Shown here piece after piece: positions 4,837-27,273 of a stretch of 64,000 nucleotides of DNA (position 1 is the first letter of the stretch; each line of letters begins with the position of its first letter). The DNA is taken from the NCBI GenBank assembly GCA_963776275.1, contig CAVZMI010000021.1, forward strand, positions 128,001-192,000, in the 5' to 3' direction. This DNA is from Ignavibacteriota bacterium. Lineage in GTDB: Bacteria > Bacteroidota > Ignavibacteria > UBA10030 > CAVZMI01. Below the pieces are notes generated by a model. The model had not been told where the DNA came from and ran no database searches. It saw nothing but the letters and a program-made list of their open reading frames with translations. Position numbers and translations under genes: made by a program.

Positions 4837-5969
4837 ATGGCGCGGTACTATCACGATACCACGTTGGAAAAAACATACTCAGGATTGCTTGAAGTCGAAG
4901 AAAGAGGGTTCGGTTTTGTCCGCACCCTTTCATTAACATTACGCCACCTTCCGACCGATCCCTATATCGCACCTCACCTCATCACACAATATCGCTTGCG
5001 CCCCGGCGTTTTGATTGAAGGAACGATCAGTATTGCCGGGAACGGCAAGTCCCAGGTCGATACTATAGAACGAATTAATAAGGTGAAGCCGGAACGATGG
5101 ATGCGCGTCGTCGAATTTTCACAGCGCACCGTCGTCAACCCGAACGAGCTCTTGAAGCTCGAGGGCTCTCACAACGACCCGGCGATGAGAATTGTGGATC
5201 TTATTTCTCCGATCGGGAAGGGACAGCGAGGTTTGATCGTCGCACCTCCCCGCTCGGGCAAAACAATGCTCCTCCAGCAGATGGCCCATGCCATAAGCAC
5301 CAATTATCCGAAATTGGATTTAATCGTTTTACTTGTTGATGAACGACCCGAAGAGATAACCGACATTCGCCGCGCCGTAAAGGGATTGGTATTTGCAAGC
5401 TCGCACGATGATCACCGGCTAAGCCACACACGTCTCGCGCAGCTTGTGCTTGATTATGCAAAACGACGAGCGGAGCTCGGTCGGGATGTCGTAATGCTGC
5501 TCGATTCTCTCACAAAACTCGGGCGTGCGTTCAATCTGACACAACGCAGCAGCGGCCGGACCTCTCCGGTGGAGTCGACGCCCGTGCACTCGAGATTCCT
5601 GAAAAAATATTCGGCGCAGCCCGCGCACTCGAGAATCATGGTACATTGACAATAATTGCCACCGCTCTTATCGAGACGAATTCGAGAATGGACGAACTGA
5701 TTTTCGAGGAGTTTAAGGGAACAGGAAATATGGAGCTCGTGCTCAGCCGCGAGCTTTCAAACCTGCGAATCTTTCCGGCAATCAATATTCTCCAATCCGG
5801 GACACGCCGTGAAGAACTATTATTCGGAGAAAATACTTACGTATACCAGACACTCCGCCGCGCTCTGGAACGAAAAAAACCTGTGGAGGCCATGAAATTA
5901 CTTCTTCAAGCTATTCAAAAGACAAAAACTAATGAACATCTCTTGGCCGATATAAAGAAGTATCTATAG
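4837..5969 (+). CDS. rho: Transcription termination factor Rho, short form; split by a 1-nt deletion near 5562
   Basis: GFGFVR, PIGKGQRGLIVAPPRSGKT and DERPEE. Restoring one C gives SGRTLSGGVDARAL and joins the FEEFKGTGNMEL...SGTRREELL ORF at 5646-5969. Confidence 0.9.
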
Positions 5970-8479: not shown

Positions 8480-9523
8480 ATGAAAGCATTCGTTCTCAAT
8501 AGCACCTGCGACCTAAATAAAAACAAAAATCCTCTTTCTCTGGTTGACATTTCCGATCCGTCGCCACGTGAGAATGAAATTCTTGTACGCATTTCAGTAT
8601 GCGGTGTATGTCATACCGAGCTTGATGAAATTGAAGGCCGCACTCCCCCTCCACATTTCCCAGTAATTCCCGGACATCAGATTATCGGACGGGTTGAAAG
8701 CTGTGGAAAAAATGTAAAAAATTTTTCAATTGGTGATCGCGTCGGTATTGCATGGATTCATTCAGCGTGCGGTAAATGCGAGTACTGCCGCCGGGGCGAC
8801 GAGAACCTCTGTCCTGAATTTGTTGCAACGGGAAGAGACGTAGATGGCGGATATGCAGAACTCGTGACGGTCCCTGAGGATTTTGCTTTTAATATCCCCG
8901 AGGAATTTTCCGACACTCAGGCGGCTCCGCTCCTCTGTGCAGGCGCCATCGGGTACCGCTCATTACGGCTCACCGGCTTGAACGACGGGCAGAATCTCGG
9001 ACTCACAGGATTCGGTGCTTCAGCACATCTCGTCCTGAAAATGGCGCGTCATCTTTTCCCGCATTCAAAATTCTTTATTTTCGCACGGAGTGAAAACGAG
9101 CGGGCTTTTGCCGGTGAAATCGGTGCGGCGTGGACAGGCGATGTAACCGACAAATCACCCTTGAAACTCCACGCGATCATCGATACAACACCGGTATGGA
9201 AACCTGTTGTCGAAGCAATGAATAACCTGGTTCCCGGCGGGCGTCTCGTTATCAATGCAATTCGAAAAGAACATCTGGACAAAGAATATTTACTCAATCT
9301 GGATTATACACATCATCTCTGGATGGAAAAGGAAATTAAAAGCGTCGCTAATGTCGCCCGCCGCGACGTATTGGAATTTCTTGCTCTTGCCGCTCAAATT
9401 CCACTGGCTCCGGTGGTTGAGATGTTCCCATTTGAGAAGGTAAATTTGGCACTTTTTGAATTGAAGGAAGGGATAATCCGCGGTGCAAAAGTGCTGCAAA
9501 TTGGAGGAGAAAAACATGGCTGA
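8480..9523 (+). CDS. Zinc-dependent alcohol dehydrogenase family protein
   Basis: CGVCHT, PGHQ, CGKCEYC...C structural zinc site, PLLCAGAIGY. Confidence 0.93.
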   Translation: MKAFVLNSTCDLNKNKNPLSLVDISDPSPRENEILVRISVCGVCHTELDEIEGRTPPPHFPVIPGHQIIGRVESCGKNVKNFSIGDRVGIAWIHSACGKCEYCRRGDENLCPEFVATGRDVDGGYAELVTVPEDFAFNIPEEFSDTQAAPLLCAGAIGYRSLRLTGLNDGQNLGLTGFGASAHLVLKMARHLFPHSKFFIFARSENERAFAGEIGAAWTGDVTDKSPLKLHAIIDTTPVWKPVVEAMNNLVPGGRLVINAIRKEHLDKEYLLNLDYTHHLWMEKEIKSVANVARRDVLEFLALAAQIPLAPVVEMFPFEKVNLALFELKEGIIRGAKVLQIGGEKHG

Positions 9524-10334
9524 AGATTTTACCCACACGACATTAGGGAGGACAGGTATCACAGTACATCGGCTCGGACTCTCAGCGACATATTGGCCCG
9601 GCAAAAAAACCGTGTACAAAGCTCTTGATGAAGGGGTGAACTATTTTTTTGGGTTTGGGACCGATGGACAATTAATACGCGCGATACGGAGCGTCGTTGG
9701 GCAGAAGAGAAAAGATATTGTCATCGCAACAGGGGCGTATAATTTGTTGATCGGATATCCAAACCTTCGGCGAACGCTTGAGAAACGGCTTCGTCAATTC
9801 GGGACTGATTATATCGATGTATTTCTTTTTCTTGGAGTGACAAAAGAAAAAGATTTTCCGGCCGAGGCCCGTGAAGAGCTTGCCCGATTCAAAGAGGAGG
9901 GGAAGGTCGGCGCAATCGGCTTATCGTCACACGACCGCAAATTTGCCGGCAAGCTGGCTGCTGAGGGATCAATGGACGTGCTGATGATCCGCTATAATGC
10001 GGCACATCGTGGTGCAGAGCAGGATATTTTTCCTTTTGTGAAAGATCACAATCCCGGCATTACGAGCTATACGGCCACACGATGGACCTACTTGATCCGA
10101 AGATCGAAAAAATGGCCGACAGACAGGCCGATACCGACGCCCGGTCAATGCTACCGATTTGTTCTATCAAATCCGAATGTGCATCTCTGTCTGACAGCTC
10201 CAAGAAACATCAGACAATTCGAAGAGAATATAAAATCTCTTTCAGATGGACTTCTAAGCGAAGATGAAATGAAATTGATGCAGGAATATGGCGATGCAGT
10301 GCATCACACAAAAAAATGGTTTATGGGAGGATGA
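9516..10334 (+). CDS. Aldo/keto reductase
   Basis: LGRTGITVHRLGL, LRQFGTDYIDVF, GKVGAIGLSSH; GGAGG RBS before ATG 9516. Confidence 0.88.
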   Translation: MAEDFTHTTLGRTGITVHRLGLSATYWPGKKTVYKALDEGVNYFFGFGTDGQLIRAIRSVVGQKRKDIVIATGAYNLLIGYPNLRRTLEKRLRQFGTDYIDVFLFLGVTKEKDFPAEAREELARFKEEGKVGAIGLSSHDRKFAGKLAAEGSMDVLMIRYNAAHRGAEQDIFPFVKDHNPGITSYTATRWTYLIRRSKKWPTDRPIPTPGQCYRFVLSNPNVHLCLTAPRNIRQFEENIKSLSDGLLSEDEMKLMQEYGDAVHHTKKWFMGG

Positions 10335-10395
10335 TAAATGCATAGAAGATCTCCGTCATCCAGGGAAATGCCGGAGAATGGAAACCTTTTACTAT

Positions 10396-11028
10396 TTAAC
10401 GCAGCATTACCATCTTCTTCACAGAGTTCCACTTCGGCGTCGAGATTCGATAGAAATAAACGCCCGAAGAAACCGTTGTCCCGGTTTCACTTCTGCCATC
10501 CCAGGTTAATTCGATGTATCCCGAAGGGTATTCGTCGTCCGTGAGAGTCCGCACTTCGCGGCCGAGTGCATCGTAAATAACAAGCTTAACCTTCGATGCC
10601 ACCGGTAATTCAAATGCGATCTTTGTCGTCGGATTAAATGGGTTTGGGAAATTATCGTACAAATGAAATTCCTTCGGCGGACTGATTGTAAATGATATTT
10701 CCTTCATCCAACTCTGTCCATTGGCTGTTTTTATCAATGCTTTGATCTTCTGCTCTTTGCCGATTGGTGCAGACCGTTCAACTGAAAACAGAAACTCAGC
10801 ATCTTTTGATTGCTTCGCAAGGATATCTTTCAGCATGATTTTCGATGATTCAAGTTTCAACCATGACTGTGGATTCTGGATCTCAACGGTGACATTTTTT
10901 GCAGCGACCGCCGCCGTGTTTTCAACGGTCAGTGCGAACGAGTTGCCCTTTGAGTTATAAGGGATTTCGTATCCTTGAGCCAGGAGAATTAACGGCATCA
11001 ATATTGATATAATGAATATTGTTTTCAT
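10396..11028 (-). CDS. Small secreted Ig-like protein with a T9SS type A C-terminal sorting domain
   Basis: Signal peptide, one Ig-like module, then NFPNPFNPTTKIAFEL...IYDALGREV...WDG...SSGVYFYRI...KKMVMLR. Confidence 0.88.
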   Translation of the reverse strand: MKTIFIISILMPLILLAQGYEIPYNSKGNSFALTVENTAAVAAKNVTVEIQNPQSWLKLESSKIMLKDILAKQSKDAEFLFSVERSAPIGKEQKIKALIKTANGQSWMKEISFTISPPKEFHLYDNFPNPFNPTTKIAFELPVASKVKLVIYDALGREVRTLTDDEYPSGYIELTWDGRSETGTTVSSGVYFYRISTPKWNSVKKMVMLR

Positions 11029-11045
11029 AAAGCCCTTTCACAATT

Positions 11046-11150
11046 TAAAAGATAACCACAAAGGTCACAGAGTTATAAATGAGTACACGGAGTATCGACC
11101 TCTGTGAACTCATCTTTCCAACCTCCGTGTACTCTGTGGTTATATTTTTA
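11046..11150. repeat. About 100-bp imperfect palindromic element (CACAGAG/CTCTGTG type)
   Basis: ataaccaca...cacagag...gagtacacggag on the left is complementary to ctctgtga...ctccgtgtactctgtggttat on the right. Confidence 0.75.
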
Positions 11151-11151
11151 T

Positions 11152-14100
11152 CTACGGCAAACTAAACTCCACCACATTATTCGTCGATAAGTTCTGTGCC
11201 TTATCCTGTTGAACTGTTCCCAACTTAACCCTGAATGTTAAATTCACCGGCAGTAACTCCTTGGTCACTTCGCCATTCACAGTGTTTCCAATCTGTCTCC
11301 ACGCACCTGAATAATAACTTGCCTGTGCATTATCAACCGGCTGGTTCTGTGCGTTTCTCACTCTCACAGTACATAATACTGTGGAAAAACTCACTGTATT
11401 ATTTGTTGAAATATCCTGTGACTTATCCATGGATATATATTCATGGGTCATTCTGAATGAATAATTATTGGGTAGCAGCTCTTTATTTGCTGTTCCACCA
11501 CTTGTTGTACCGAAACTCCTCCAGGCGCCCGAGTAATACTGTACCGTTCCCTGATCTATTAAACTGGCTTGACTGTTTTTCAACTGGACTATTGCATTGA
11601 CCGTCTGGAATACTACCGTAGGATTTGTACCGATATCCTGCTGTTTATCCTTGCTCGCATATGAATATGTCATTCTAAACGAATAGTTATTCGGTAACAG
11701 CTCTTTTGCTGCTGTTCCGTTTGTTGTAGTCCCGAAGTCTCTCCATGCTCCTGAGTAGTATTGCACAGTTCCCTGATCCATCAAACTACCCTGGCTGTTC
11801 TTCAATTGTACTGCTGCATTGACGGTTTGAAAAACTACTGTACTATTTGTTCCTATATCTTGCTGTTTGTCTTTGCTTGCAAATGCGTATATCATTCTAA
11901 ATGAATAATTATTTGGCAGCAGCTCTTTATTAGCGACACCATTTGCTGTTGTTCCGAAACTTCTCCAGGCACCTGAGTAATACTGGACTGTTCCTTGATC
12001 CATCAAACTACCCTGACTGTTCTGCAATTGTACTGCCGCATTGACTGTCTGGAAGACTACTATTGGATTTGTTCCTATCTCTTGTTGTTTGTCTTTGCTC
12101 GCATATGCATAGATCATTCTGAATGAATAATTATTTGGCAATAATTCCTTGTTTGCTACACCATTAGCAGTAGTACCGAATTCTCTCCATGCACCGGAGT
12201 AATATTGTACTGTTCCTTGATCCATTAAACTGCTTTGACTGTTCTGTAATTGGACTGCAGCGTTGACAGTTTGGAAAATTACTGTTGGATTTGTACCTAT
12301 ATCTTGTTGTTTATCCTTGCTTGTATAAGCATAGGTCATTCTAAATGAATAGGTATTTGGCAGCAGCTCTTTGGCTGCAATACCGTTTGTCGTTGTTCCG
12401 AAGTTTCGCCATGCACCGGCATAATATTGCACTGTGCCCGTATCTATCAATGCACCGCTACTGTTTTGCAATTGAATTTGCGTATTGACGGTTTGAAATA
12501 CTACAGTATCAATGCCGACCGGCACATTTGATTTTGTTTGTGTGCCGTACTCGTATGTCATTCGCAGACTTAAGGTTTTTTGGTTTGTAGTAATGGTGAA
12601 TGTACCGTCGTTGTTATTTATTGCATCTTTCCAGGCGCCTTCGTAGTACTGAAGTGTGCCACTGGTGAGAATCATACCACTGCTGTTTACAAATTTTATA
12701 ACGCATCCTGTTACTTGCGGCTGCGGCTTGATGTAGAAATGGATGCCGTTTGATTCTGCCGATCCATCGGGATTCTTTACAGTAACTACCGGAGAATCGA
12801 CGGCAGCGAGATCCGAAACGATTATAGATGCTTGTAGTAGTGTGTCTTTTATAAATGTCGTCGACTTTGCTGTTCCATTCCAAAACACCGTTGAGCCACT
12901 GACAAAGTTTTTGCCAGTGACACTTAGTGTAACGGTGCCACCCCCGACATAAGCAATGGCGGGACTTAGTGATATGATATTTATTAATTTAGAAAGATCG
13001 ATGTTGACGGAACGCTCTTCTTTAGGCAAATAGTAATAAAGCATGTTGGGATAATTGTCGAAGACCAAGACCTTTCCATCGGGCGGTAAGTTAAGATTTT
13101 GCAAAATGGTTCCTGTTTTGCCATCAAAAACAGAAATTCTCCCGGGATGTAAGTCTTTATAATTGGAGTGCCTGGAGGTTTTCTCAATGATCCAGGGTGT
13201 TTCTTCAATAATGACATACTTCCCGTTGCTAGATAAATAACTATGTTCAGCTAATGGAAAAGGAATTAGACCATAGACAGTATCTTTATCAATATTATAG
13301 ACAGCAAATTTTTTATCTTCCATTTGTTGTCTTGGATATAAAAAACATAAAAGATAATTTCCCTTTTTACTATCTGCGACATCGTATCCACCGGGAACAT
13401 ATATGTCGGACAATTTTCGATTAATAATAAGCTGCTGTGTAAATAATGAGTACTTGCCAATTGCTCTGCATTTCTGATTGTCCCTATTTTCTGAGTATAG
13501 GTAATTCCCATCAGCCGAGACAGAGCTTATCGAAGTAATCCAAGCTGGAGGAACTGGCAAGGTATCAAGAACTTTAAATGTGGAAGCATCATAAACAGCA
13601 GTCTTCTGGAAAATAAACAGGCTATCCCAAAGCCCTGAATAATCTGATCTGAGAAAATCAGTTGTCCACGTCACATAGAATACATTCTTGACGGGATTGT
13701 ACACTATTCCATCGAGTATGCTTCTGCCATCTCTTGATAGGTTATAAAACCTTGTGAATGATTGTACTTTCCCAACTGGTTGAGAAGGATCGTCAAATAA
13801 CCTATGACGTTCAAAATGTACCCTGCCAATTTTTTGCGTTGTATCTTGTTCAGGGAAACGATGATTAACCCCAATATTGTTTGTGTTAATGACATCCGCA
13901 ACGAACACCGGATACTCACGTCCTCCTGCATCTCCATATGTAAAGACCCAACTTTGTGTCGGATCCCATGATTCTAATTTAGCGCAGCAAACGGTATCGG
14001 TATAGAACAACTCATTTATATTAGTCTGTAGATTGAATCGCCAAAACTTTTCCGCTTCTTTGGCATCGCTGTAATAATAATATGGTTGCGCAAATACTTG

Positions 14101-14157
14101 ATATGTCAGGCATATCATTAGCGACAACGTCATCCACAAGCATTTTTTCATTTTCAT
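11152..14157 (-). CDS. 1001-aa secreted protein: propeller-like N-domain, IPT/TIG domain and seven 74-aa beta-rich repeats
   Basis: Signal peptide; IISLSP...TLSVTGKNFVSGSTVFWNG (IPT/TIG); repeated GTVQYYSGAWRxFGTTxNG...KELLPNNYSFRM. Confidence 0.85.
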   Translation of the reverse strand: MKMKKCLWMTLSLMICLTYQVFAQPYYYYSDAKEAEKFWRFNLQTNINELFYTDTVCCAKLESWDPTQSWVFTYGDAGGREYPVFVADVINTNNIGVNHRFPEQDTTQKIGRVHFERHRLFDDPSQPVGKVQSFTRFYNLSRDGRSILDGIVYNPVKNVFYVTWTTDFLRSDYSGLWDSLFIFQKTAVYDASTFKVLDTLPVPPAWITSISSVSADGNYLYSENRDNQKCRAIGKYSLFTQQLIINRKLSDIYVPGGYDVADSKKGNYLLCFLYPRQQMEDKKFAVYNIDKDTVYGLIPFPLAEHSYLSSNGKYVIIEETPWIIEKTSRHSNYKDLHPGRISVFDGKTGTILQNLNLPPDGKVLVFDNYPNMLYYYLPKEERSVNIDLSKLINIISLSPAIAYVGGGTVTLSVTGKNFVSGSTVFWNGTAKSTTFIKDTLLQASIIVSDLAAVDSPVVTVKNPDGSAESNGIHFYIKPQPQVTGCVIKFVNSSGMILTSGTLQYYEGAWKDAINNNDGTFTITTNQKTLSLRMTYEYGTQTKSNVPVGIDTVVFQTVNTQIQLQNSSGALIDTGTVQYYAGAWRNFGTTTNGIAAKELLPNTYSFRMTYAYTSKDKQQDIGTNPTVIFQTVNAAVQLQNSQSSLMDQGTVQYYSGAWREFGTTANGVANKELLPNNYSFRMIYAYASKDKQQEIGTNPIVVFQTVNAAVQLQNSQGSLMDQGTVQYYSGAWRSFGTTANGVANKELLPNNYSFRMIYAFASKDKQQDIGTNSTVVFQTVNAAVQLKNSQGSLMDQGTVQYYSGAWRDFGTTTNGTAAKELLPNNYSFRMTYSYASKDKQQDIGTNPTVVFQTVNAIVQLKNSQASLIDQGTVQYYSGAWRSFGTTSGGTANKELLPNNYSFRMTHEYISMDKSQDISTNNTVSFSTVLCTVRVRNAQNQPVDNAQASYYSGAWRQIGNTVNGEVTKELLPVNLTFRVKLGTVQQDKAQNLSTNNVVEFSLP
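11155..12700 (-). repeat. Intragenic tandem repeat, about 7 x 222 bp (74 aa)
   Basis: YYxGAW-coding motif recurs at about 11310, 11532, 11754, 11976, 12198, 12420 and 12642. Confidence 0.95.
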
Positions 14158-14178
14158 ATTGACCTCATTGTTTTAACT

Positions 14179-16590
14179 TTAACGCCACGGGTGATTAATG
14201 CGAAGACTATCGACGTCATCAGCATAATCTCTTGCCGTAATATTCTTACCTGTTCCTTCCGTACTTCTTGCCCAATAACCGGGTTTATTTTCCATTACAT
14301 CCGGTGGCTTCCAATCCCAATACCATGCTCCGATTCCACCATTATACTCGCAATACGCTTCGCAGTACCTCTCTTCTTCATCCAAAGGTGTATTTTTCGC
14401 TGTTTCGGTTGGGTCACGATAATCAAGATGGTAATTCGTCGCATCGTTGTCATAACAATATCTAAAATACAATTTTCCTTGCTGCACGTTAGTAACCCAA
14501 TTCCAAATAATATCATCACAGTCATAGTCATTATTATTATAGTACCAATTATTGGGATAATACCATGGTGAATTGATCTGCATCATTCCAAAATCCTGGT
14601 GGTCACCCCCTTGAAGGGGGAAATCGGGAGTCGTGTTATATTCTGTTTTGAAAGTAGACAACTTGGCGAATTGATTGAAGTGACTTTCATAGGATGCTAT
14701 GGCAGCATATTCATCTCCCTTGAGTTCCGCAAGGACAGTCGCCTTAGATGGATTCTGTCCTTTGATTATGAATGGATTCGATACGTCAGTCGTGTATTTT
14801 TTCTCATCCTTCTTTGTCGTAGCCTCTACATGAAGTGTTATCTGGTTGCCTCCGCGCATGTTGGCTTCACCATAAAGGTATTCACCTATTTCCAAATCCG
14901 TTGTATCCGAATTTGCACCTGATGCATCGCCTTTATAAGACTCAGTTGTATCATTCGGTGTCACATATCTATCTCTGTCTGATTTCCATTTTATCTTTAG
15001 TTCCCAATTAAAATCTACATCACCGCCATCGTAATTTTTTAAATATGCTTTAATCAAAGGCTTTGGCATTTTGGGTAGATTAGTCCCTTCGATTTTCTGT
15101 ATTTTCTGATCATCAGGAAGTGTATCCACCACTAACTCCGGCTTGCTCTTGATCGTCACATCAGCCACGGGTATCCTGCATGATTCTCCCCCTTCTATCG
15201 CGGTCGCCTCTATTTGTGCTAGTTTTGCACGTGATTCCGGCGAATTACTGGCATCTTTCATCACTCTGTTCAAGTTTGCTAAACGGGTTTCCACATATCC
15301 TATAATTCTATCAAATTGGGATTTGTTTTTGGCTATCTCTCTCCTATCAAACAGTCTCTTCTTTAACTTTTCAGCCGAACGGATCGAAGATCTTACCTTG
15401 CTCGTAGTATCTATTGAATATGTACCTTTTTTTTCACTGTTACTCGCCTGTTGGTTCTCGTGCGAACTATTCCGCATCTTCACCATCAATCCCGCAGGCA
15501 ATCGGTGTGTATCGATCGGTTCATTTTTTATCGATCCAGCACCCCCGCCACCACCTGCTCCCTCCGGATAAGCCTCTATCTCTGCCACAACGGAATCAGC
15601 ATCAATACTGTCAGCAGCCACAAATTCGAACGGTTGCTGACCATAGAGGTAAGAACCTTCATCGCCAGTTATCAATGAGCGCAAAAAACCATAGCTCTCG
15701 TCGCTATTCATCCAAATACTGAAATTGGTTTCTGGAGGGTACTCGATAAGAGCACCATCTGATTGAAGGCCCATAATGTTTATAGCGTCTGTATCACCGG
15801 GATTGATCTCTGCTTTTGATACATTTACAACCGTACAGAGTTCCGGCATGTCCGGGACTTCGACAGAAAGCCAGCGCAAATCACTATAGCCATAATAGGG
15901 GCCCCAAAATGCTGGATCGCTTACCACTCCATCACATGAAGCAGTCGTATATGGGTGATCTATTCGATAACAAAGATCTGCCGCACTATTAGTATACGAT
16001 AGTGTTACATTCCGAGCCCGATAAGTAAGGCCTTCGCAATCAGGAACTCCAATTGTAATGGTCACTGAGTCTCCGGCATGGAAATATCCAAGATCAACAT
16101 ACCAATCCTTGTTCCAGAAGGGATCATCATAACTTAGTGTCCAGTAAGTACCGGCACCGCAAAAAAAGGTTGAATCCATCGTTCTTTGATAAAATGCATC
16201 CTTCGCATTATATGAAAATCCAGGCTCGATGCCTTCGGTTCTGATAATCGGACCAAAGGTGACAATGCTACAATAACTACAATCAGCGTCAGTATAGTTA
16301 AAATAAGGTCCAAACCACCAACAGGCCATGTAGCCAATTCTATTAAAGTTCTGCCTCAGTCGAAGAGTACCGGGAGCTGTAAAGTAGATCCTACCATTGT
16401 ATTCATTATCGGGTAGTTCACTCGCATTTTGCAGAATCGTAGCCGGTGTAATTTTTACCCGCTCTCTAATTTTAACCTGGCTATTGGCAGTAGTTGAAAT
16501 TAAACCGGTGATAATCACAACGATTAGAAACTTCAACAATCGTAAGTTTCTAGAATCCTTTCGAGTGAGAAAATAAATTCGAGATGTCAT
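14179..16590 (-). CDS. 803-aa secreted protein with a C-terminal lytic transglycosylase (SLT)/lysozyme-like domain
   Basis: Signal peptide; Cys/aromatic-rich N-half; Gly linker; C-terminal AAIASYES.FNQF, DFGMMQIN, WNWVTNV and YNGG matching SLT motifs I-III. Confidence 0.75.
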   Translation of the reverse strand: MTSRIYFLTRKDSRNLRLLKFLIVVIITGLISTTANSQVKIRERVKITPATILQNASELPDNEYNGRIYFTAPGTLRLRQNFNRIGYMACWWFGPYFNYTDADCSYCSIVTFGPIIRTEGIEPGFSYNAKDAFYQRTMDSTFFCGAGTYWTLSYDDPFWNKDWYVDLGYFHAGDSVTITIGVPDCEGLTYRARNVTLSYTNSAADLCYRIDHPYTTASCDGVVSDPAFWGPYYGYSDLRWLSVEVPDMPELCTVVNVSKAEINPGDTDAINIMGLQSDGALIEYPPETNFSIWMNSDESYGFLRSLITGDEGSYLYGQQPFEFVAADSIDADSVVAEIEAYPEGAGGGGGAGSIKNEPIDTHRLPAGLMVKMRNSSHENQQASNSEKKGTYSIDTTSKVRSSIRSAEKLKKRLFDRREIAKNKSQFDRIIGYVETRLANLNRVMKDASNSPESRAKLAQIEATAIEGGESCRIPVADVTIKSKPELVVDTLPDDQKIQKIEGTNLPKMPKPLIKAYLKNYDGGDVDFNWELKIKWKSDRDRYVTPNDTTESYKGDASGANSDTTDLEIGEYLYGEANMRGGNQITLHVEATTKKDEKKYTTDVSNPFIIKGQNPSKATVLAELKGDEYAAIASYESHFNQFAKLSTFKTEYNTTPDFPLQGGDHQDFGMMQINSPWYYPNNWYYNNNDYDCDDIIWNWVTNVQQGKLYFRYCYDNDATNYHLDYRDPTETAKNTPLDEEERYCEAYCEYNGGIGAWYWDWKPPDVMENKPGYWARSTEGTGKNITARDYADDVDSLRINHPWR

Positions 16591-16844
16591 TGCTTAAATT
16601 CTCTCTTTTCGGGATACTCTTCCCCACGAGAGATAATCCATCCAGCACAAGTACGTTTATGATTACGCTATTAACAAGGAAGCTTCCATTATAATACCGC
16701 AGTGAGTTACTATTTTGTGACAATTCAACCAGAAGCTGATGAAGCCTGGGGTAAAACTGGAATATTTTGCGTCTCTAACTCGTAGAGCCTATAATCAAAG
16801 GATGAAATTGATCCTGAATTAAATTCAGGATAGAATACAACTGT

Positions 16845-16873
16845 AACTTAATGCTCGGGAATTGAAATGTCAA
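16845..16873 (-). promoter_or_regulatory. Sigma70-like promoter for the three-gene secreted cassette
   Basis: TTGACA-N17-TAAGTT on the minus strand, about 250 nt upstream of ATG 16590. Confidence 0.55.
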
Positions 16874-17022
16874 GAACTTTATTGGAAAAAAGTGTAAAAA
16901 TTACGATAACCGGAAATATTAGAAGGCGCCGAAATTCGGCAATCATCAATCATAAATCGGCATTCTCTCGGCCATTTCCAAATTGACCCTCAGTAATCTC
17001 GTGCCTCCTCTGGAGCTTTGAA

Positions 17023-18519
17023 TCAGGGAGACAAATCAGAAGATGGTATTTCTGATACCGGAGATTTCCGCTGTAGAAGAGCTTTCAGAATGCCAATCTC
17101 CGCAGGATCGAAGAAGCGCATGAGAGCCATAAGCCCGATGAATCCAATCAGAAGTCCGATTTTGACAAGCATATGAGCATGGAGAGTGCCTCCGACCACG
17201 ACAAAGATACAGAAAATTATTCCTGTCGATACGGCAATTACGCCCATTCTTCTGAATTCGTATCTGACCGGGTAATATCGTTGAACAATAAAATAGAGCG
17301 ATAGCGCCATTACAATGTAACCGCCGAGAGTCGACCAGGCCGCGCCTACAAACCCGAGCAAAGGAATCAGCAACAGATTCATCCCGATATTCGTCACGGC
17401 ACCCAGTCCTGACGTCAGTGGAAGAAATTGAGTTTTTTTCTCGATATAAATACCCGGTATCAGGAGAACATAAACTCCTGTAAAGACATAGGCGAGGAGC
17501 ACAATGGGAACGATGCCGAGTCCCGGCCAGTATGCAGGATGAATTAACCGGTGGTGTAAAATTTCAATACCGACAAGGTCGCCGATAAAGAATGAGATCA
17601 CCAGAAAACCAAACATTAAAAGAAGGAAAAAGTACGTGGCGATGCGCGCAAACATTTTTTTCGCATCCGGCTCTTTTGCATTCGAAAGGAAGAAAGGACG
17701 CCAGGCATAATCGAACATCGACACAATCAGCATGATAAAAATTCCCAGCCTATAGTTTGCCTGATAGATGCCGACCGATGCATCATCGGTGAGCGCCCGG
17801 AGAATCGGCCTGTCGATAACCTGAAGCGCAATGCCGGCGAGTCCTGCCGGGACGTATGGCAGACCGAATTTCAATAATGCCGAAAAGAGCTTTGAATTTT
17901 TCGGCCATGCGATATGACGGATAATTGTGGGGAAAAGACAGAGTGCCGTAAAAAGAGATGAAATGATCCCGCTTACGAATATTCCCGCCACGCCCATCCT
18001 GAATTTTGCAAGAAGAATGGCATTTAATACAACATTTAGAATGATGCCCGCAACCCGGATTCCCGCAAACTGCCACGGCCTTTTCTGTAATCGTAATGCC
18101 GCAAACGGTATCAATGAAACTGCATCGAAGAAAAGAATCCCGACGGCGTAAATCACGATATATCGTTCCTGTTCACCACGTGCTACCAGATATGAAAGCG
18201 GAGTTGCATTCCAGAGAATAAGAAGAGAAAAAAGAACAGAGCCGATAGTCACGGTCAGCCACGAGAGTCCGAAGACTTCTTTTTCATCGCCAAGCTCTCG
18301 AGTGGATGAATATTTAAAAAAAGCCGACTCCATGCCGAGGCCGTATACAACATTGAGAAATGCTATATAGGAATAGACATTTGCAACAACGCCGTAATCA
18401 CTTTTCGGAAGGATATTCGTATAAAGGGGAAGAAGAAGGAAACTCAGAAATCGCCCGAGAATGGTACTGATACCATAGATGGCTGTTTCTGCGCCGAGTC
18501 GTTTGATTTTATCGAACAT
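17023..18519 (-). CDS. Oligosaccharide flippase (Wzx/MATE-like)
   Basis: Many TM segments; RFLSFLLLPLYT...DYG and VGIYQANYRL motifs. Confidence 0.88.
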   Translation of the reverse strand: MFDKIKRLGAETAIYGISTILGRFLSFLLLPLYTNILPKSDYGVVANVYSYIAFLNVVYGLGMESAFFKYSSTRELGDEKEVFGLSWLTVTIGSVLFSLLILWNATPLSYLVARGEQERYIVIYAVGILFFDAVSLIPFAALRLQKRPWQFAGIRVAGIILNVVLNAILLAKFRMGVAGIFVSGIISSLFTALCLFPTIIRHIAWPKNSKLFSALLKFGLPYVPAGLAGIALQVIDRPILRALTDDASVGIYQANYRLGIFIMLIVSMFDYAWRPFFLSNAKEPDAKKMFARIATYFFLLLMFGFLVISFFIGDLVGIEILHHRLIHPAYWPGLGIVPIVLLAYVFTGVYVLLIPGIYIEKKTQFLPLTSGLGAVTNIGMNLLLIPLLGFVGAAWSTLGGYIVMALSLYFIVQRYYPVRYEFRRMGVIAVSTGIIFCIFVVVGGTLHAHMLVKIGLLIGFIGLMALMRFFDPAEIGILKALLQRKSPVSEIPSSDLSP

Positions 18520-18520
18520 G

Positions 18521-19402
18521 TCACCGACGGAGTGTCAGTTCCAGAGAAATATCGAGTGCCTGTACCGAATGCGTCAGGGCACCGACCGAAATCAAGTCGA
18601 CGCCGGTCTTAGCGACGGTACGGACATTCTGAAGCGTCATTTCGCCCGATGCCTCCACCTCCACACGTTTTGCTATGAGTTTGACAGCTTCGTGCATTGC
18701 ATCAGGTTGAAAATTATCGAGCATGATTCTGTTGAAAAACTTGCCCGCTTCAAAACAGGCCATAGCTTTACGAACGTCATCCATTGATCGCGTTTCAACT
18801 TCGATCGGAATATTAAGTTCTTTTTTTTGCAGGTATGCAAAACAGCGCTCGATTGCGGGTTGAATCCCGCCTGCAGCAACAATATGGTTATCCTTGACCA
18901 TTATCATATCGTCAAGCCCGAAACGATGATTCACTCCGCCGCCGATCGTCACGGCAAGTTTATCGAGCACACGGAGTCCTGGAACAGTCTTTCGCGTATC
19001 GGTGATCCGGACACCTGTTCCCTTGACGGCGTCGACAAATTGCCGCGTAAGGGTTGCGATGCCGCTCATTCGCTGAAGGAAATTCAGCGCGACGCGTTCT
19101 CCTTTAAGGATTGATTTCGCCGGTCCGTTGATCGTTCCGATAAAATCCCCCGGTCGAACATGATCACCATCGTGAACGGCCGGTAACATACCGAGGCTTT
19201 CGTCGAGGTACCGGAACACGATTGCAGCCACCCCGAGACCGGCGACGATTCCAGGTGCTTTTGCAAGAAAAACCGCTTCTCCCGACATTTCTTCGGGCAC
19301 GGATGCATCGCTGGTGACATCGCCCAGGCCGATATCTTCGAAGAGCGCCTGTTCAATGATGCGGCTGACACGGCTATCGTGCAGAGTGTTACTGTTCATC
19401 AT
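18521..19402 (-). CDS. nadC: Nicotinate-nucleotide diphosphorylase (carboxylating)
   Basis: ED...GDVTS, GERVALN, DTRKT, HRFGL, KDNH, IMLDN, ISVGALTHS. Confidence 0.97.
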   Translation of the reverse strand: MMNSNTLHDSRVSRIIEQALFEDIGLGDVTSDASVPEEMSGEAVFLAKAPGIVAGLGVAAIVFRYLDESLGMLPAVHDGDHVRPGDFIGTINGPAKSILKGERVALNFLQRMSGIATLTRQFVDAVKGTGVRITDTRKTVPGLRVLDKLAVTIGGGVNHRFGLDDMIMVKDNHIVAAGGIQPAIERCFAYLQKKELNIPIEVETRSMDDVRKAMACFEAGKFFNRIMLDNFQPDAMHEAVKLIAKRVEVEASGEMTLQNVRTVAKTGVDLISVGALTHSVQALDISLELTLRR

Positions 19403-19547
19403 CCACCAGGAGAATGGGAATATCATCCTTCACGGCATACACCTTTGCACATTTCTTGCATGTGAGGGAGTTTCCAGCTGCATCATAGAGAAGATCTCCT
19501 TTGCACTTTGGACAACAAAGAATGTCGAGAAGTTCCTGACTTAACAT
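19389..19547 (-). CDS. Trm112 family small protein (52 aa)
   Basis: Manual translation MLSQELLDILCCPKCKGDLLYDAAGNSLTCKKCAKVYAVKDDIPILLVDDEQ; below the ORF-track size cut-off. Confidence 0.92.
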   Translation of the reverse strand: MLSQELLDILCCPKCKGDLLYDAAGNSLTCKKCAKVYAVKDDIPILLVDDEQ

Positions 19548-19558
19548 AATGGCTCTCT

Positions 19559-19978
19559 CTATTCGAATTTTGATTGCAGGAGTTCAATAAACGAAGCCGG
19601 TGCACGCGTTGGACGGCCAGTATCAGATTTCACAAAGCTGTGGACGGTATATCCTTCAATCAGAAGATCCGTTTTGCCTGCGCGTCGGATTTCATAGTCA
19701 ATGCGGATTCGTGCTGCTGGAATCTCGCGTACTATCGTCTTCACTTCTATCAAATCGTCATACCGGGCAGAAGAAATATATCTTGCGTGTGATTCCACAA
19801 CAGGGAGAAAATAGCCGAGCGCTTCGATTTCAGAATACGGCATGCCGATTTCCCTCAGGAGGTCGGAACGTCCTTGCTCAAAATACTCATAGTACTTTGC
19901 GTAATACACTGATTTCATCTGATCCGTATCGGCATATCGCACACGGATCTGCGATGTTGTAAAGAGAGTACGCGCCAT
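19559..19978 (-). CDS. YbgC/FadM family acyl-CoA thioesterase
   Basis: RVRYADTDQM..VY...Y..YFEQGR hot-dog fold motif. Confidence 0.92.
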   Translation of the reverse strand: MARTLFTTSQIRVRYADTDQMKSVYYAKYYEYFEQGRSDLLREIGMPYSEIEALGYFLPVVESHARYISSARYDDLIEVKTIVREIPAARIRIDYEIRRAGKTDLLIEGYTVHSFVKSDTGRPTRAPASFIELLQSKFE

Positions 19979-20928
19979 TATTCGTCGAATGATCCCATTG
20001 CACCGAATTTTTCGATACGGTGTTCGAGAAGCTTTTCAACTTTAATTTTTTTCACCAGTTTTAATTCTTCGATCAGCACGTCTTTTAACATTATTGCAGC
20101 CAGTTGTGGATTACGGTGGGCTCCGCCGAGTGGTTCAGGCACAATTCGATCAATCACGCCCTGCACCAGCAAGTCGGGTGCTGTCAGTCTCAGCGCTTCG
20201 GCTGCCTGTTCTTTAAAATCCCAGCTCCGCCAGAGAATGCTCGAGCATGATTCCGGGGCAATAACATTATACCATGTATTTTCGAGCATCAACACTCTAT
20301 CGCCGATTCCTATCCCCAACGCTCCGCCCGATGCGCCTTCACCGATAATGACGGCGATAATGGGTGTTCGCAGCCGGGACATTTCGAGCAGATTTCGCGC
20401 AATTGCCTCGGCCTGCCCGCGTTCTTCCGCTTCCAAACCGGGATATGCACCGGGAGTATCGAGGAGTGTAATGACCGGCCTTGAGAATTTCTCGGCAAGC
20501 TTCATCAACCGTAGAGCTTTTCGATAGCCTTCGGGATTCATCATACCAAAATTCCGGTAGAGATTCGTCTTGGTATCCCTTCCTTTTTGATGGCCAATCA
20601 CCATAATGGTCTCGGTACCCAGACGTGCAAAACCACCGACCACAGCGTGATCATCGCGGTATGACCGATCGCCGTGAAGCTCGATGAAATCGGTCATCAT
20701 GAAGCTTATATAATCAAGCATATAGGGGCGTTCCGGGTGACGGGCGAGCTGTACTTTTTGCCATCGGGTCAATCCTGTGAACACATTCTGGCGAAGTTGA
20801 TCGACTTTCTTTTCCAGCGTTTTAATTTCTTCCGAAATATCGAGGTTATCGGCATATTTTCTCATCTCATCGATTTTTTGCTCAAGCTCAAGAATCGGCT
20901 TTTCGAATTCGAGGACCACTTTTGCCAT
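19978..20928 (-). CDS. accA: Acetyl-CoA carboxylase carboxyltransferase alpha subunit
   Basis: [45 protein letters not shown]. Confidence 0.98.
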
Positions 20929-20932
20929 CCTT

Positions 20933-22930
20933 TTACTCCTTCGTCCGATGTAAAAGCGACTTTACAAGAATTTCAATATCGAGCGTCAACGACTGGTTTT
21001 TTGCATAATACAGATTGTACCGTTCTATTTCTTCACGCGTTGTTATACTTCGGGAATTGATCTGCACCATTCCGGTCAGTCCGGCTTTTCCAAGATAGAA
21101 TTCTTTCTTGTCGGTGTGTAAATTTTCGATTCCAATTGTTATTGGGCGACCGACAAAACTGTACGTTCCGCGCAGGACGAGAGGTACATTGCAGATTGCA
21201 GTTGCAAAGGCCGATAAATCTTTCGATCCAAGCAACTTCTTTAAATATACAAAAGGGTAAATCGAAATCAAAAGAAAAATTGAGAAAAGAAGGTCGAAAG
21301 TCCTTTTTGTAATGCGGTTGATGGGTTTATCAATATTATAGTCGATTTCTACCAGCGGAATATCGTCAAGTTGGTCGATATGTGTTTTGCCGATAATTAC
21401 TTCGAGGTTATTGGGTACGAGCCGGAAATTCACCGAGCGCTCTCGACTACGTCCAATCACCGAGAGGATGTCGCCATAGGAAAGTGCGTCGGTTGAGAAA
21501 ATTACATCGGTCACTTTCGCTTCACGAATGACTTTGCCTATATTGTCGATACTCCCGGTGATCTCAACACCCGATACCTTTTCACCCAGCCTCTGACGAT
21601 TGATATCGATGAATCCGACGACATCGTATTCATCATCCGCATGAAGACGGATTTTTCGAAGTACTTCCTGCGCCGAAGAGCTTGTCCCCACAATCAGTGT
21701 GCGCCGGCCAAAGAACAATCTTTCACCGCTTCGACTGAGCAATCGGAGTAACAACCGCCATCCAGGCAAGAATAGAAGATTTTCAATAAATGAGATCCCT
21801 GTCACGGCTCTACTGAATCCGAAACCTTTGAAGAAAAAAACCAAGGCCGAGATGATGGTAAATCCGATCACCACAGCGCCCAATGTCCGCGAAATGGCAT
21901 GCCGCCGTTCGGTATATACACCAAGAAAATACATCGCCAGGACAAGAATCATCGGTGGGACGATATAGATGATTGGATAGGCATAATTTGGAAATGTCCA
22001 TAGCCGTCCCATCCAGATGAGTTCCCCGATTATTTGTGAAATATCGATCAGGATGATGTCACACAGGGGGATAATGCTGTTGCGAAATGCTTTCCATAGA
22101 AAAGCAAAGAGCGTGCGAATCACAATGCCACTTCTGAGAAGGGAAAGGCTGAACCAGGAATTGCTGAGATGTTTCCTGACAAATAAATGCATTGCCTGAT
22201 AAAATATCCTGATTTCATCAAGGTCGCTCCGTTTTGTGCTCTCGCCTTTATAATGTACTATTTGCGTCGAATGAACGTAAAATATTTTCCATCCTGCTTT
22301 TTGAATCCGATAGCACCAATCCAGATCTTCTCCATACATGAAGAATTCCTCATCGAGACCGCCGACCGTTTCAAAGATCCGACGCCGCAGCATCATAAAA
22401 GAACCGCTGATCGCATCAACCTCGTATGTTTCTTCAGGATTAAGATATGTGAGATTATATCGACCTAACAACCGGGAATTGGGAAAGAGCGAAGACAGAC
22501 CGATTATCTTTGTGAATGCAATTAATGGCGTTGGGAAACTCCTCCTGCATGCGATCTGGAGTGTTCCGTTAGGATTCAGAATCTTGCAGCCGGCCATGCC
22601 GACATCGGGATTCTTCTCAAAAAAGTCGACCATTACCTGGAATGTATTTTCCTGAACGATTGTATCGGGATTAATCAGTAATAGATATCTCCCTACCGCC
22701 CGCTGAAGGGCAATATTATTCGCCCGGGCAAAACCGATATTAATCTCGTTCAAAATGAGCTTCACCCCTGGAAACTTCGACCTGATAAGCTCAACACTTC
22801 CATCGTCCGATGCATTATCGACGACAAAGATTTCATGACGAAGATTTTCGGCGGCTTTCGAAATCGAGACAAGCGCGTTATCGAGGAACTCGCGGACGTT
22901 ATAGTTCACTATAATAATCGAGAGATCCAT
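20933..22930 (-). CDS. GT2 glycosyltransferase fused to TM, CoA-binding and degenerate sugar-transferase domains
   Basis: [28 protein letters not shown]; C-half resembles WcaJ ([17 protein letters not shown]). Confidence 0.88.
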
Positions 22931-23650
22931 TTATGAAAGTCTTCCAATCAGACTATGCCACTTCAGTTTCCAGACCATGAAAATAGCCTCGTACACAATT
23001 TTCTTCGACATCTTTGAAACACCGACCCGACGATCTTCAAAAATAATTGGAATTTCGATCATCCTGAATCCTTTTTTCCATGTTTTGAAATTCATCTCGA
23101 TTTGGAAGGCATAACCGTTCGAGTGGATCGCATCGAGGTCAATATTCTCGAGAACTTTTCGACGGAAACATTTGAAACCGCCTGTTGCATCTTTAATTGG
23201 CATTCCGGTAATGATCCGCGTATAAAGATTCGCCCCATAACTGAGTATTAATCGTTTAAGCGGCCAATTGACAACAGTGACACCGGTAAGATATCTTGAG
23301 CCAATGACGAGATCATAATTCCGGATCTTTTGAAGAAAATTCGGGATTTCACGCGGATCGTGGGAAAAATCAGCATCCATCTCAAATACACAGTCGTAAC
23401 CATTAGTAAGGGCATATCTGAATCCGGCAACGTATGCCGTCCCGAGCCCTTTTTTCCCCTCACGTTCAATCAGGCTGATCCGGTTGTTCGCCGTCATCAT
23501 TTGCTTGACGATCGAGCCTGTCCCGTCCGGTGATGAATCATCGACAACAAGCACATGGAGCGACGATTCGACGGAGAGAACATCATCAATAATCTTCTGG
23601 ATATTATCCGCCTCATTAAATGTGGGTATGACTACAAGTGCTTTTTCCAT
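22931..23650 (-). CDS. Polyprenol monophosphomannose synthase (DPM1-like GT2)
   Basis: VIPTFNEADNI, VDDSSPDGT, EMDADFSHDP, DATGGFK, GYAFQIEM. Confidence 0.92.
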   Translation of the reverse strand: MEKALVVIPTFNEADNIQKIIDDVLSVESSLHVLVVDDSSPDGTGSIVKQMMTANNRISLIEREGKKGLGTAYVAGFRYALTNGYDCVFEMDADFSHDPREIPNFLQKIRNYDLVIGSRYLTGVTVVNWPLKRLILSYGANLYTRIITGMPIKDATGGFKCFRRKVLENIDLDAIHSNGYAFQIEMNFKTWKKGFRMIEIPIIFEDRRVGVSKMSKKIVYEAIFMVWKLKWHSLIGRLS

Positions 23651-23661
23651 TTTTCTCACTA

Positions 23662-24789: not shown

Positions 24790-24841
24790 CGGTCTTCCCT
24801 TGTGTGATAAATATCAGTTAATAAGTGATATGTCTTTCCCA

Positions 24842-25311
24842 AAGGAAAAATTAAAAATTATAAAGGAAAAAGTATTACATGACAAACACAAATTATTATT
24901 TCTTTGGTGAAATATTTCTCGAAATCTTCGACGTTATTGATCCTAATATCAACATTAACTCTTTTGCCTCACCTTGGATTTCTTTGATATCATCATTATG
25001 TTTGTTTTCAATCGCGGCTATAATTTTTATCCAATAGTTTGCTTCTCTAATTTCCTTCAAAGCGATATTGAGTTTATTCTTAAAATCTGCTCGCGATGAC
25101 GCAGCTTGAGCTTCCTCATAATTCGCTCCTACTGATGTTATAGCTTTGATCAGTTGATGCTTTATATCCCGTAATTCGACATCATTTGGTAATTTCCGGA
25201 GAAAAAGAATTACTCTGATTGTGAAATCAAATATCCTTTTATCTAGGTCTATGTTCATACATACATTGTAAACTTTTATAATTTTTAATTTTTACTTTTT
25301 AATTTTTCCTT
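24842..25311. repeat. Inverted AT-rich heptamer-repeat arms bracketing the four-helix-bundle gene
   Basis: Left aaggaaaaattaaaaattataaagg (about 24842-24866) matches the reverse complement of right ttttataatttttaatttttactttttaatttttcctt (about 25274-25311). Confidence 0.75.
24896..25258 (-). CDS. Four-helix-bundle protein (23S rRNA IVS-protein/Avd-like family)
   Basis: QLIKAITSVGANYEEAQAASSRADFKNKLNIALKEIREANYWI signature. Confidence 0.93.
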   Translation of the reverse strand: MNIDLDKRIFDFTIRVILFLRKLPNDVELRDIKHQLIKAITSVGANYEEAQAASSRADFKNKLNIALKEIREANYWIKIIAAIENKHNDDIKEIQGEAKELMLILGSITSKISRNISPKK

Positions 25312-25315
25312 GCTT

Positions 25316-26755: not shown

Positions 26756-27015
26756 TATGCTTACGATGAGGCTTTAGCATATACCTACCCCGTAAAGGGA
26801 CGAGAGAATCAAAGCAAGATGGTAGGAACACCAAATCCTCGCCTATGTCAGAGAAAAAAACGTTCGAGTATGACGTGAAACCATAACCCTTTATCGTTCT
26901 ACTTAGTATCGACAAAACCGTTCAAACGATTCCTTTTACGAAGGATTGATTCCGTAATTCACGGATAAATCTGTGTGTTTGTGCAATCCTATTACTTTCA
27001 ATAGTGGTGAAAAAT

Positions 27016-27179: not shown

Positions 27180-27273
27180 GTGGGTTTTCTCTTTCCGCTT
27201 GCTTTTTAACGCTGCCACGTTCCGGAGTTCATTACACGAGTAATAGCCAATTCAATTCGGTTGAAGGAATACC

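Follow-up and report, generated by a model that had tools for sequence, protein, structure and literature searches.

A 64,000-nt stretch of DNA from an Ignavibacteriota bacterium (contig CAVZMI010000021.1, positions 128,001 to 192,000; hereafter the window, whose numbering is used for coordinates) carries three adjacent, co-oriented genes on its minus strand, ordered gene 1, gene 2 and gene 3. Their products combine a lysozyme-like domain, a predicted beta-propeller and a type IX secretion system (T9SS) sorting domain, and this raises the question of what such a cassette is for. Sequence comparison leads us to predict, on balance, that it represents a new polymorphic peptidoglycan-hydrolase toxin/immunity family. 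We consider it likely that gene 1 encodes a polymorphic effector and gene 2 a partner physically matched to it; whether that partner acts, as a putative inhibitor or immunity protein, against the enzyme is evenly poised. The gap between gene 1 and gene 2 is 21 nt and that between gene 2 and gene 3 is 123 nt. The features on which the argument turns are as follows.

14179..16590, minus strand: gene 1 (803 aa), a secreted modular protein and candidate polymorphic peptidoglycan hydrolase, from its open reading frame (ORF) and module map
16480..16590, minus strand: signal peptide of gene 1 (residues 1-37), with predicted cleavage between ANS and Q, read by eye, relatives being laid out alike
16444..16479, minus strand: mature N-terminal motif of gene 1, QVKIRERVKITP, with the family pattern Q-[VI]-x-I-[KR]-E-[KR]-V-E-I-x-P
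15841..16443, minus strand: variable, Cys-rich N-domain of gene 1 (about residues 50-250), of no known family (no Pfam match)
15145..15840, minus strand: constant trunk of gene 1 (residues 251-482), matched in 7/7 related loci
14758..15144, minus strand: C1 beta-sandwich of gene 1 (residues 483-611), the start of the variable C-terminal module, all-beta in the AlphaFold model (model residues 1-133)
14182..14757, minus strand: GH23-like lysozyme/lytic-transglycosylase domain of gene 1 (residues 612-803), from motifs, Pfam, PDB and Foldseek combined
11152..14157, minus strand: gene 2 (1001 aa), a secreted partner protein, from its ORF directly downstream of gene 1
12988..14088, minus strand: variable N-domain of gene 2 (residues 24-390), a YVTN-like beta-propeller by model and Foldseek, candidate cognate inhibitor
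12718..12987, minus strand: IPT/TIG-like domain of gene 2 (residues 391-480; NCBIfam CoaZ_rpt_PGGG at residues 394-475, 2.5e-22)
11155..12717, minus strand: constant region of gene 2, seven 74-aa repeats (residues 481-1001), from Tandem Repeats Finder (TRF) and repeat starts
10396..11028, minus strand: gene 3 (210 aa), with a signal peptide, a NEW3/CARDB-like immunoglobulin (Ig) domain (residues 30-96) and a T9SS type A sorting domain, from Pfam and NCBIfam
10408..10650, minus strand: T9SS type A C-terminal sorting domain (CTD) of gene 3 (residues 127-207; TIGR04183, PF18962)

Exchange at the boundary of gene 1 and gene 2

A HMMER search with gene 1 found 224 representatives at E <= 1e-3 (50% clustering), and our module map covers 152 relatives, drawn from 150 listed of these representatives and four earlier hits. 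The trunk was present in 102 of the 152. The lysozyme-like C-region follows it in 36 of these and is absent from the other 66, some of which are fragments; 51 of the 66 have tails of at least 100 aa, which fall into groups of 26, 12, 6, 4, 1, 1 and 1. The exchange is exemplified by P0004 and P0005 (the latter identical to gene 1 of the related locus L003), which share 96% identity over 436 residues up to the junction and are unrelated beyond it. Their similarity ends right after the VTIE junction, where P0004 continues into the lysozyme-like domain and P0005 into another domain. As in polymorphic toxins, then, unrelated C-terminal domains are exchanged at a fixed junction on a constant trunk. 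A tree of the trunk was built from 24 representatives, 10 of them lysozyme-type and 14 other; rows without a single trunk-spanning hit and rows with a tail <150 aa lacking a lysozyme match were left out. The C-type needs at least 8 changes on it, at least 4 of them forced by well-supported branches, no fewer than with shuffled labels (mean 7.9-8.0). An earlier note on this DNA had named swapped C-terminal toxin domains on a conserved gene-1 N-terminus as support for its proposed toxin/immunity/carrier cassette. The swaps are seen; the conservation holds for an N-terminal motif of about 12 residues and for the trunk, and fails for the N-domain, which was matched in one of the seven related loci (L003) and in a few representatives (P0004, P0005, P0159).

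The alternative C-terminal domains appear from their sequences to be mostly cell-wall-type enzymes. Among the 113 gene-1 relatives scanned with Pfam, Peptidase_C39_2 was found at cut-off in five and Peptidase_M74 (MepA-like) in one, with one more below cut-off. The group to which L006 and L007 belong has an invariant H-x-x-G-x-S-x-D-like motif (LAS-like), and the L003 group has an invariant HExxH. Because PDB searches with profiles of both groups returned nothing relevant, these assignments rest on the Pfam hits in a few members and on the invariant motifs.

The seven related loci (L001-L007) came from a genome scan with a five-sequence alignment (A1), which reaches only relatives with QPFEF[IVK]AA or [WL]MN[TS]D[AE][RKS]YG; it gave 97 candidate stretches, seven of which encode a gene-1 relative. 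All seven lie in metagenome-assembled genomes (MAGs) of Ignavibacteriota/Bacteroidota. The gene-1 trunk and the gene-2 repeats were matched in every one of them, the repeats at 50-81% identity. The lysozyme-type C-region of gene 1 and the P0002-type N-domain of gene 2 were both matched in L001, L002, L004 and L005, and neither was matched in L003, L006 or L007. With the window included, three gene-1 C-types pair with three gene-2 N-types in 8/8 loci.

Lysozyme-type C-region with P0002-type propeller N-domain: window, L001, L002, L004, L005 (5/5)
LAS-like C-region with P0315-type N-domain: L006, L007 (2/2)
HExxH-type C-region with HEAT-repeat N-domain: L003 (1/1)

The gene-2 repeats of L003 are 84% identical to those of P0018, a carrier of the propeller-type N-domain, so the swaps are not due to overall divergence. 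The cognate downstream gene thus varies together with the candidate toxin domain, again as in polymorphic toxins; a co-varying gene-2 N-domain and a constant gene 3 had been named in the earlier note as further support, and both proved to be so. The variable segments of the two genes abut on the DNA, and constant coding sequence borders them on both sides; joint replacement by recombination is therefore possible.

A structure of the complex was predicted from gene-1 residues 480-803 and gene-2 residues 24-395, each with its own alignment. The pair scored 0.49 (runs of 0.49, 0.55 and 0.44) against 0.00 for the best of three controls, which is graded as weak support; at least 56% of contacts are common to the runs, and the partner pLDDT (predicted local distance difference test) is at least 81. 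Of 80 solved complexes, 58 reach the mark that the pair passed, as do 2 of 110 mismatched pairs. The interface suggested earlier for genes 1 and 2 therefore stands weakly, and for the pair of variable domains. Given the covariation, the complex score adds modestly to the likelihood that the two domains are in contact.

A gene-2 relative directly follows the gene-1 relative in 7/7 loci, and a gene-3 relative (39-54% identity) follows gene 2 in all four loci that extend far enough (L002, L003, L004 and L007), which bears out the co-occurrence expected in relatives. The outer flanks are unlike in every locus (ComEC, ATP synthase/PilB-like, RadC and others). The three genes therefore travel as a unit. 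Because order and spacing are conserved in 7/7 and 4/4 loci, a chance juxtaposition of three unrelated secreted proteins is excluded. A related possibility is that the cassette is a remnant of phage or tailocin lysis genes or of a tail lysin, and modular proteins with lysozyme-like, LAS and cysteine-peptidase domains are indeed typical among phage lysins as well. All three proteins carry Sec signal peptides, however, and no phage-type gene was found in the window or in the scanned locus flanks, phage and viral collections lying outside the search. We find an origin by either of these routes scarcely credible.

Two observations concern the copy number of gene-2 domains. In L006, positions 11502..12467 between gene 1 and gene 2 hold an additional 321-aa ORF with its own signal peptide and a gene-2-type N-domain only. 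Its last ~110 residues are almost identical to those of the following gene 2 and its first ~200 are ~40% identical, and it resembles a partly duplicated gene or a spare one for immunity; by analogy, arrays of immunity genes often look like this stand-alone N-domain copy. Gene-2 paralogues also occur together within single Bacteroidota MAGs (three in one case, P0286, P0289 and P0292, and two in another, P0298 and P0335; locus-tag prefixes ABSD46_ and ABR936_), and one genome can therefore hold several cassettes.

Modules of the three proteins

The C-terminal domain of gene 1 carries the motifs E635-S636, G668-x-M670-Q and Y749-N750-G-G. These agree with what we take to be the GH23/SLT signature, a catalytic Glu in an E-S pair at a helix end followed by G-[LM]-M-Q and [AE]-Y-N-x-G. 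E635 is invariant in 31/31 relatives and S636 nearly so; in a second alignment (n = 20), E635 and the E-S pair are invariant in 20/20, G189 and M191 are invariant, and Y270, N271 and G273 are nearly invariant. A reading from a five-sequence alignment, in which the catalytic Glu seemed to be lost to Leu, was overturned by the larger alignments: E635 is the conserved Glu, and an insertion follows it. The best PDB sequence match of the C-terminus was a c-type lysozyme (E 0.066). The AlphaFold model of the C-region has a pLDDT of 81.5, and the top Foldseek matches are the goose-type lysozymes 1gbs and 3gxk (1gbs: E 3.2e-3, probability 1.00, template modelling (TM) score 0.47, 16% identity). On the combined evidence only, the domain is GH23-like, with a predicted activity as a lysozyme or lytic transglycosylase, and the SLT/lysozyme-like ending of gene 1 noticed earlier is upheld to that extent. 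Because the Pfam cut-off for SLT (PF01464) was not reached, it is called GH23-like and not a proven family member; none of the 113 gene-1 relatives scanned reached that cut-off. In the module map, the C1 beta-sandwich accompanies the lysozyme-like domain in relatives.

Along the trunk, an Ig-like module bearing QPFEFxAADSID is followed by a poly-Gly stretch and then by a helical linker, and the trunk ends in the junction motif C..ADVTI. An ESM Atlas search with the gene-1 N-domain and trunk gave a best score of 0.75 and no look-alike. The ~12-residue N-terminal motif stands right behind the signal peptide in most full-length relatives, regardless of the domain that follows (74 N-termini read by eye, just 19 of which were caught by a strict regular expression), and it may be a sorting or docking signal. 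An NCBIfam scan of gene 1 returned no family at E <= 0.1, and Pfam and NCBIfam found in it no known delivery or secretion domain (TPS, Rhs, PAAR, LXG, TANFOR and others).

The ORFs of 803, 1001 and 210 aa confirm the three co-oriented genes described earlier, and a Sec signal peptide can be read by eye in each: a basic stretch, a hydrophobic stretch, a site of small residues and then Gln. The predicted cleavage sites lie between ANS and QVK in gene 1, VFA and QPY in gene 2, and LLA and QGY in gene 3. Gln at position +1 is the rule among signal-peptidase-I substrates of Bacteroidetes (PMC5837995).

The model of the gene-2 N-domain (pLDDT 85.5) shows a YVTN-type beta-propeller followed by an Ig-like domain. 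Its top Foldseek match is 1l0q, a YVTN propeller with a PKD domain (E 1.5e-12), followed by YncE and WD40 propellers (E ~1e-8); as modelled, the propeller is of the seven-bladed YVTN type. The N-domain has no Pfam sequence match, and a PDB sequence search with gene 2 returned nothing relevant. Its type varies among relatives: the P0002 type is found in 36 of 126 complete N-termini, and others are FG-GAP-like, HEAT-repeat or of further types. A 78-member N-domain cluster was dropped as a count of one type, because single linkage had joined FG-GAP-like, HEAT and further types in it. Relatives may lack the IPT domain, which was matched in one of the seven loci. TRF described the repeats with a period of 222 nt, 4.7 copies and 77% matches, and they are probably CarboxypepD_reg-like beta-sandwiches. 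Relatives of the repeats number 806 proteins at E <= 1e-3 (90% clustering), with 50-92% identity among the best 120; one of the gene-2 relatives comes from a Melioribacter MAG. The composition reported earlier for gene 2, a unique N-domain, an IPT/TIG domain and seven repeats, is thereby confirmed.

Gene 3 matches FlgD_ig (9.8e-13), Por_Secre_tail (29.4 bits, cut-off 27) and TIGR04183 (36.8 bits, cut-off 23), and with TIGR04183 and PF18962 both above cut-off it fits T9SS type A cargo by its sorting domain. Genes 1 and 2 do not, having no CTD match at E <= 0.1 in Pfam and NCBIfam. The earlier note was thus right that gene 3 is one Ig-like module plus a T9SS type A sorting domain and that genes 1 and 2 have no recognisable CTD; its proposal that gene 3 is the export carrier for both strikes us as doubtful. 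PF18962 was present in none of the 113 gene-1 relatives scanned and, among the 120 gene-2 relatives listed, in only two distant ones, P0317 and P0320, which precomputed Pfam annotation gives as CarboxypepD_reg with Por_Secre_tail.

These findings bring a different function into view. The T9SS typically builds surface coats of degradative enzymes, and the cassette could encode a secreted or surface bacteriolytic complex for feeding on cell-wall material or prey, in which the gene-2 N-domain would be a substrate-binding, positioning or activating subunit and the repeat stalk and gene 3 would anchor the enzyme at the surface. The bona fide T9SS type A sorting domain of gene 3 and the domains of P0317 and P0320, distant relatives of the repeats, speak for it, as does an ESM Atlas match of the gene-2 repeats to extracellular stalk domains at 0.90-0.92, taken as a lead only. 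The covariation and the weak pass of the complex prediction would suit any specific pairing, inhibitory or otherwise. Nevertheless, a peptidoglycan hydrolase in the cell's own periplasm must still be kept inactive, and unrelated enzyme domains on near-identical trunks, with C-types spread at random over the trunk tree, are the signature of a conflict system. The stand-alone N-domain gene of L006 is also easier to explain as spare immunity. We therefore judge a feeding complex unlikely and keep to the toxin/immunity family as the preferred reading.

A further feature lies between the second and third genes.

11029..11151, minus strand: gene 2-gene 3 spacer, a long stable hairpin followed by UCUUUU (minimum free energy -44.6 kcal/mol, z = -6.2)

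The hairpin of this 123-nt spacer is nearly perfect, and none of 200 shuffled sequences was equally stable. It is possibly a partial terminator or a stabiliser, and its stability suggests a different expression level for gene 3. At the same place, L002 has a 172-nt spacer (14229..14400) with an inverted repeat, GTCATTGCGA ... TCGCAATGAC, that differs in sequence from the hairpin of the window.

Proposed mechanism and genomic context

Under the preferred reading, gene 1 would be a Sec-exported peptidoglycan-degrading effector whose exchangeable enzyme module starts behind C..ADVTI. The gene-2 N-domain would bind and block this enzyme domain in the periplasm of the producer, as cis-immunity. Gene 1 would then be released or displayed and attack the cell walls of competitors in the manner of a bacteriocin. 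The constant parts would serve assembly, display or export; the gene-1 motif and trunk, the gene-2 repeats, and the Ig and sorting domains of gene 3 may, more tentatively, provide a link with type IX secretion or the cell surface. The most far-reaching form of this proposal is a Sec- and T9SS-linked bacteriocin-like weapon, in which one recombination would swap toxin and immunity and the CTD-less toxin, kept inactive by the immunity domain on its scaffold, would ride on gene 3 to the surface, perhaps docked through its QVKIKERVEI strand; we regard this form as rather improbable.

Several results weigh against a toxin/immunity family. At 1001 aa, gene 2 is far longer than usual immunity proteins, and its repeat stalk is its best-conserved part. 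The SLT score of gene 1 in Pfam is 13.3 bits against a cut-off of 21.3 (E 0.062), and Foldseek gave no match of its C-region at E <= 1e-3. The complex score of 0.49 falls in a range where predictions fail more often than they hold, except where the guess was already likely, scores at 0.60 or under being reached by 7 of the 80 solved complexes as against both of the passing mismatches. The covariation is a specific functional match whose direction would be compatible with inhibition, activation or the presentation of substrate. With only seven loci, all on MAG contigs found through two gene-1 motifs, the sample is narrow and tied to gene 1. The occurrence of gene 2 without gene 1 is not settled by the family sizes, 806 at 90% clustering and 224 at 50% clustering not being comparable. 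In L007, the gene-1 relative is split (8708..10792 and 10819..11358), with the trunk and the LAS-like C-domain in different frames; the open frames overlap at ~10680..10792, and the split reflects either a frameshift (pseudogene) or faulty assembly of the MAG. The 64-kb window contains no core gene of the T9SS and no phage gene, mobile element or further toxin gene, and composition in 6.2-kb windows gave no sign of recent transfer.

The G+C content of the cassette is 0.412, compared with 0.438 for the remainder of the window and 0.46-0.52 for the immediate flanks. Across 6.2-kb windows, the mean is 0.434 +/- 0.029 with a minimum of 0.377 elsewhere, and the cassette lies within one standard deviation. 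Upstream of gene 1 there is one further feature.

16845..16873, minus strand: promoter-like string TTGACA-N17-TAAGTT, inside the 432-nt region upstream of gene 1

This string lies ~255 nt upstream of the gene-1 ATG, and its -10 box shares only 3 of 6 positions with TATAAT. A scan of the window found 19 promoter-like sites against 19.5 +/- 4.5 in shuffled sequences, and the string was not among them. Two claims of the earlier note thus lose their force: the string is present and no better than chance as a promoter of the cassette's own, and the AT-richness said to be visible against the flanks is an unremarkable dip for this window. We give neither any weight. An Rfam scan of 10000..17200 gave no match at E <= 1, and no second copy of the cassette was found in the window.

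The same strand upstream of the cassette carries nadC, accA, genes for a Wzx-like flippase and a thioesterase, and a cluster for polysaccharide biosynthesis. Downstream, dehydrogenase/reductase genes and typA lie on the opposite strand. The rest of the window contains further polysaccharide genes, thiamine genes and housekeeping genes. This neighbourhood suits a third function, an endogenous remodelling pair in which an autolysin and its dedicated periplasmic regulator or adaptor would act in growth, division or the insertion of envelope structures, with gene 3 unrelated or loosely linked. Lytic transglycosylases and LAS peptidases are ordinary housekeeping enzymes, and Sec export of all three proteins also speaks for such a pair. 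However, the polysaccharide neighbourhood is not conserved, because the flanks differ in all seven related loci. A free change of enzyme class on one trunk is unexpected for a housekeeping enzyme, and the several gene-2 paralogues per MAG and the synteny of gene 3 in 4/4 loci also argue against it. We hold a remodelling pair to be quite unlikely.

Other observations on the window concern its remaining genes. Two large polysaccharide biosynthesis clusters (capsule or O-antigen-like) occupy 17023..42829 (minus strand) and 57566..63978 and encode two Wzx-like flippases, a Wzy-like polymerase, Wzz, an SLBB export protein, a Wzi-like protein and many glycosyltransferases. The G+C minimum of 0.377 lies at ~29-31 kb, within one of them. 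Housekeeping genes appear split or truncated at 46076..47870, 54373..56120, 4837..5649 and 62355..62825; thiC and an Omp85-like gene each fall into two ORFs (overlapping in thiC), a Rho-like ORF has 270 aa, and a GDP-mannose-dehydratase-like gene is a fragment, which suggests assembly frameshift errors or real pseudogenes.

Relation to known systems and significance

Colicin and pyocin operons join a modular toxin, with a receptor-type N-terminal part and an exchangeable killing domain, to an adjacent immunity gene and a constant release gene, and pesticin is a muramidase bacteriocin with a periplasmic immunity protein. The cassette resembles them in its three-gene logic, in the exchange of the candidate killing domain and immunity together between conserved flanks, and in a lysozyme-like domain that would need periplasmic immunity. 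We found no sequence or family relationship to any of these. The differences are the Sec signal peptide of gene 1, the repeat stalk to which the immunity candidate is joined, and a third gene that encodes a T9SS substrate and not a lysis lipoprotein.

In CDI (contact-dependent inhibition; CdiA-CT/CdiI) and Rhs systems, the C-terminus is displaced behind VENN or PxxxxDPxGL, with the immunity gene downstream and spare immunity genes. The cassette shows the same sharp C-terminal displacement after a short junction motif, here C..A[DS]VTI, with the candidate immunity gene likewise directly downstream and a possible spare one in L006, and its relatives occur at several loci per genome. It differs in having no TPS/FHA, YD-repeat or two-partner transporter and in that conserved coding sequence encloses its variable block on either side, in the form of the gene-1 trunk and the gene-2 repeats. 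With respect to canonical T9SS cargo, gene 3 conforms and genes 1 and 2 do not.

Inhibitors of peptidoglycan hydrolases with propeller topology have been described, namely Tsi1, X-Tfi XAC2610 and PliI-Ah, and immunity proteins can guard against cis-intoxication, according to two reports (PMC3391265, PMC10933484). As in the pairs Tse1-Tsi1, from a type VI secretion system (T6SS), and X-Tfe XAC2609/X-Tfi XAC2610, of an X-type IV secretion system (X-T4SS), and as with PliI, the candidate inhibitor here is a signal-peptide-bearing (partial) beta-propeller set against a periplasmic cell-wall enzyme. Tsi1, X-Tfi and PliI are small single-domain inhibitors, whereas gene 2, with its 1001 aa, carries a full 7-blade-like YVTN propeller of ~370 aa. 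The cassette has no T6SS or T4SS genes near it, and no sequence similarity was detected.

Among published ideas, that of the TANFOR toxins comes closest to the cassette. As described, these toxins of Bacteroidetes are CTD-less, signal-peptide-bearing and polymorphic, T9SS substrates are enriched alongside them, and export by the T9SS is hypothesised (PMC7073777). The cassette shares with them a Sec signal peptide, the lack of an own sorting domain, polymorphic C-terminal domains, a partner gene directly downstream and a T9SS-substrate neighbour. In contrast, gene 1 lacks the TANFOR domain TIGR02542 (no NCBIfam family at E <= 0.1, provided that the library includes this model), and its trunk is a different, undescribed one. 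The TANFOR toxins are mainly nucleases with a small separate immunity protein, whereas the candidate toxins here are cell-wall enzymes that would act in the periplasm and the candidate immunity role falls to the N-domain of a large repeat protein. The T9SS-tagged neighbour here is also one fixed small gene, unlike at the TANFOR loci. A text search of open-access full text, made by words and not by sequence, found no description of the trunk, the repeats or the cassette.

The families involved are large and without a Pfam family, with 224 representatives of the gene-1 trunk and at least 806 proteins with gene-2 repeats in MAGs of Ignavibacteriota/Bacteroidota. They offer several candidate pairs of enzyme and partner, in which a beta-propeller goes with a GH23-like domain, a mixed alpha/beta domain with a LAS-like one, and a HEAT-repeat domain with an HExxH one. 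Fusion of the immunity candidate to a constant scaffold leaves the variable block flanked by homology on both sides, an unusual way for toxin and immunity modules to stay together. A role of the T9SS in bacterial warfare has been raised only as a hypothesis, for TANFOR toxins (PMC7073777). The cassette is a compact test case for it, being conserved, limited to three genes, built of clear exchangeable modules and always including the T9SS-tagged gene. If gene 1 were indeed carried piggy-back on gene 3, this would be the first such export through the type IX system, and the T9SS would gain a role in interbacterial killing.

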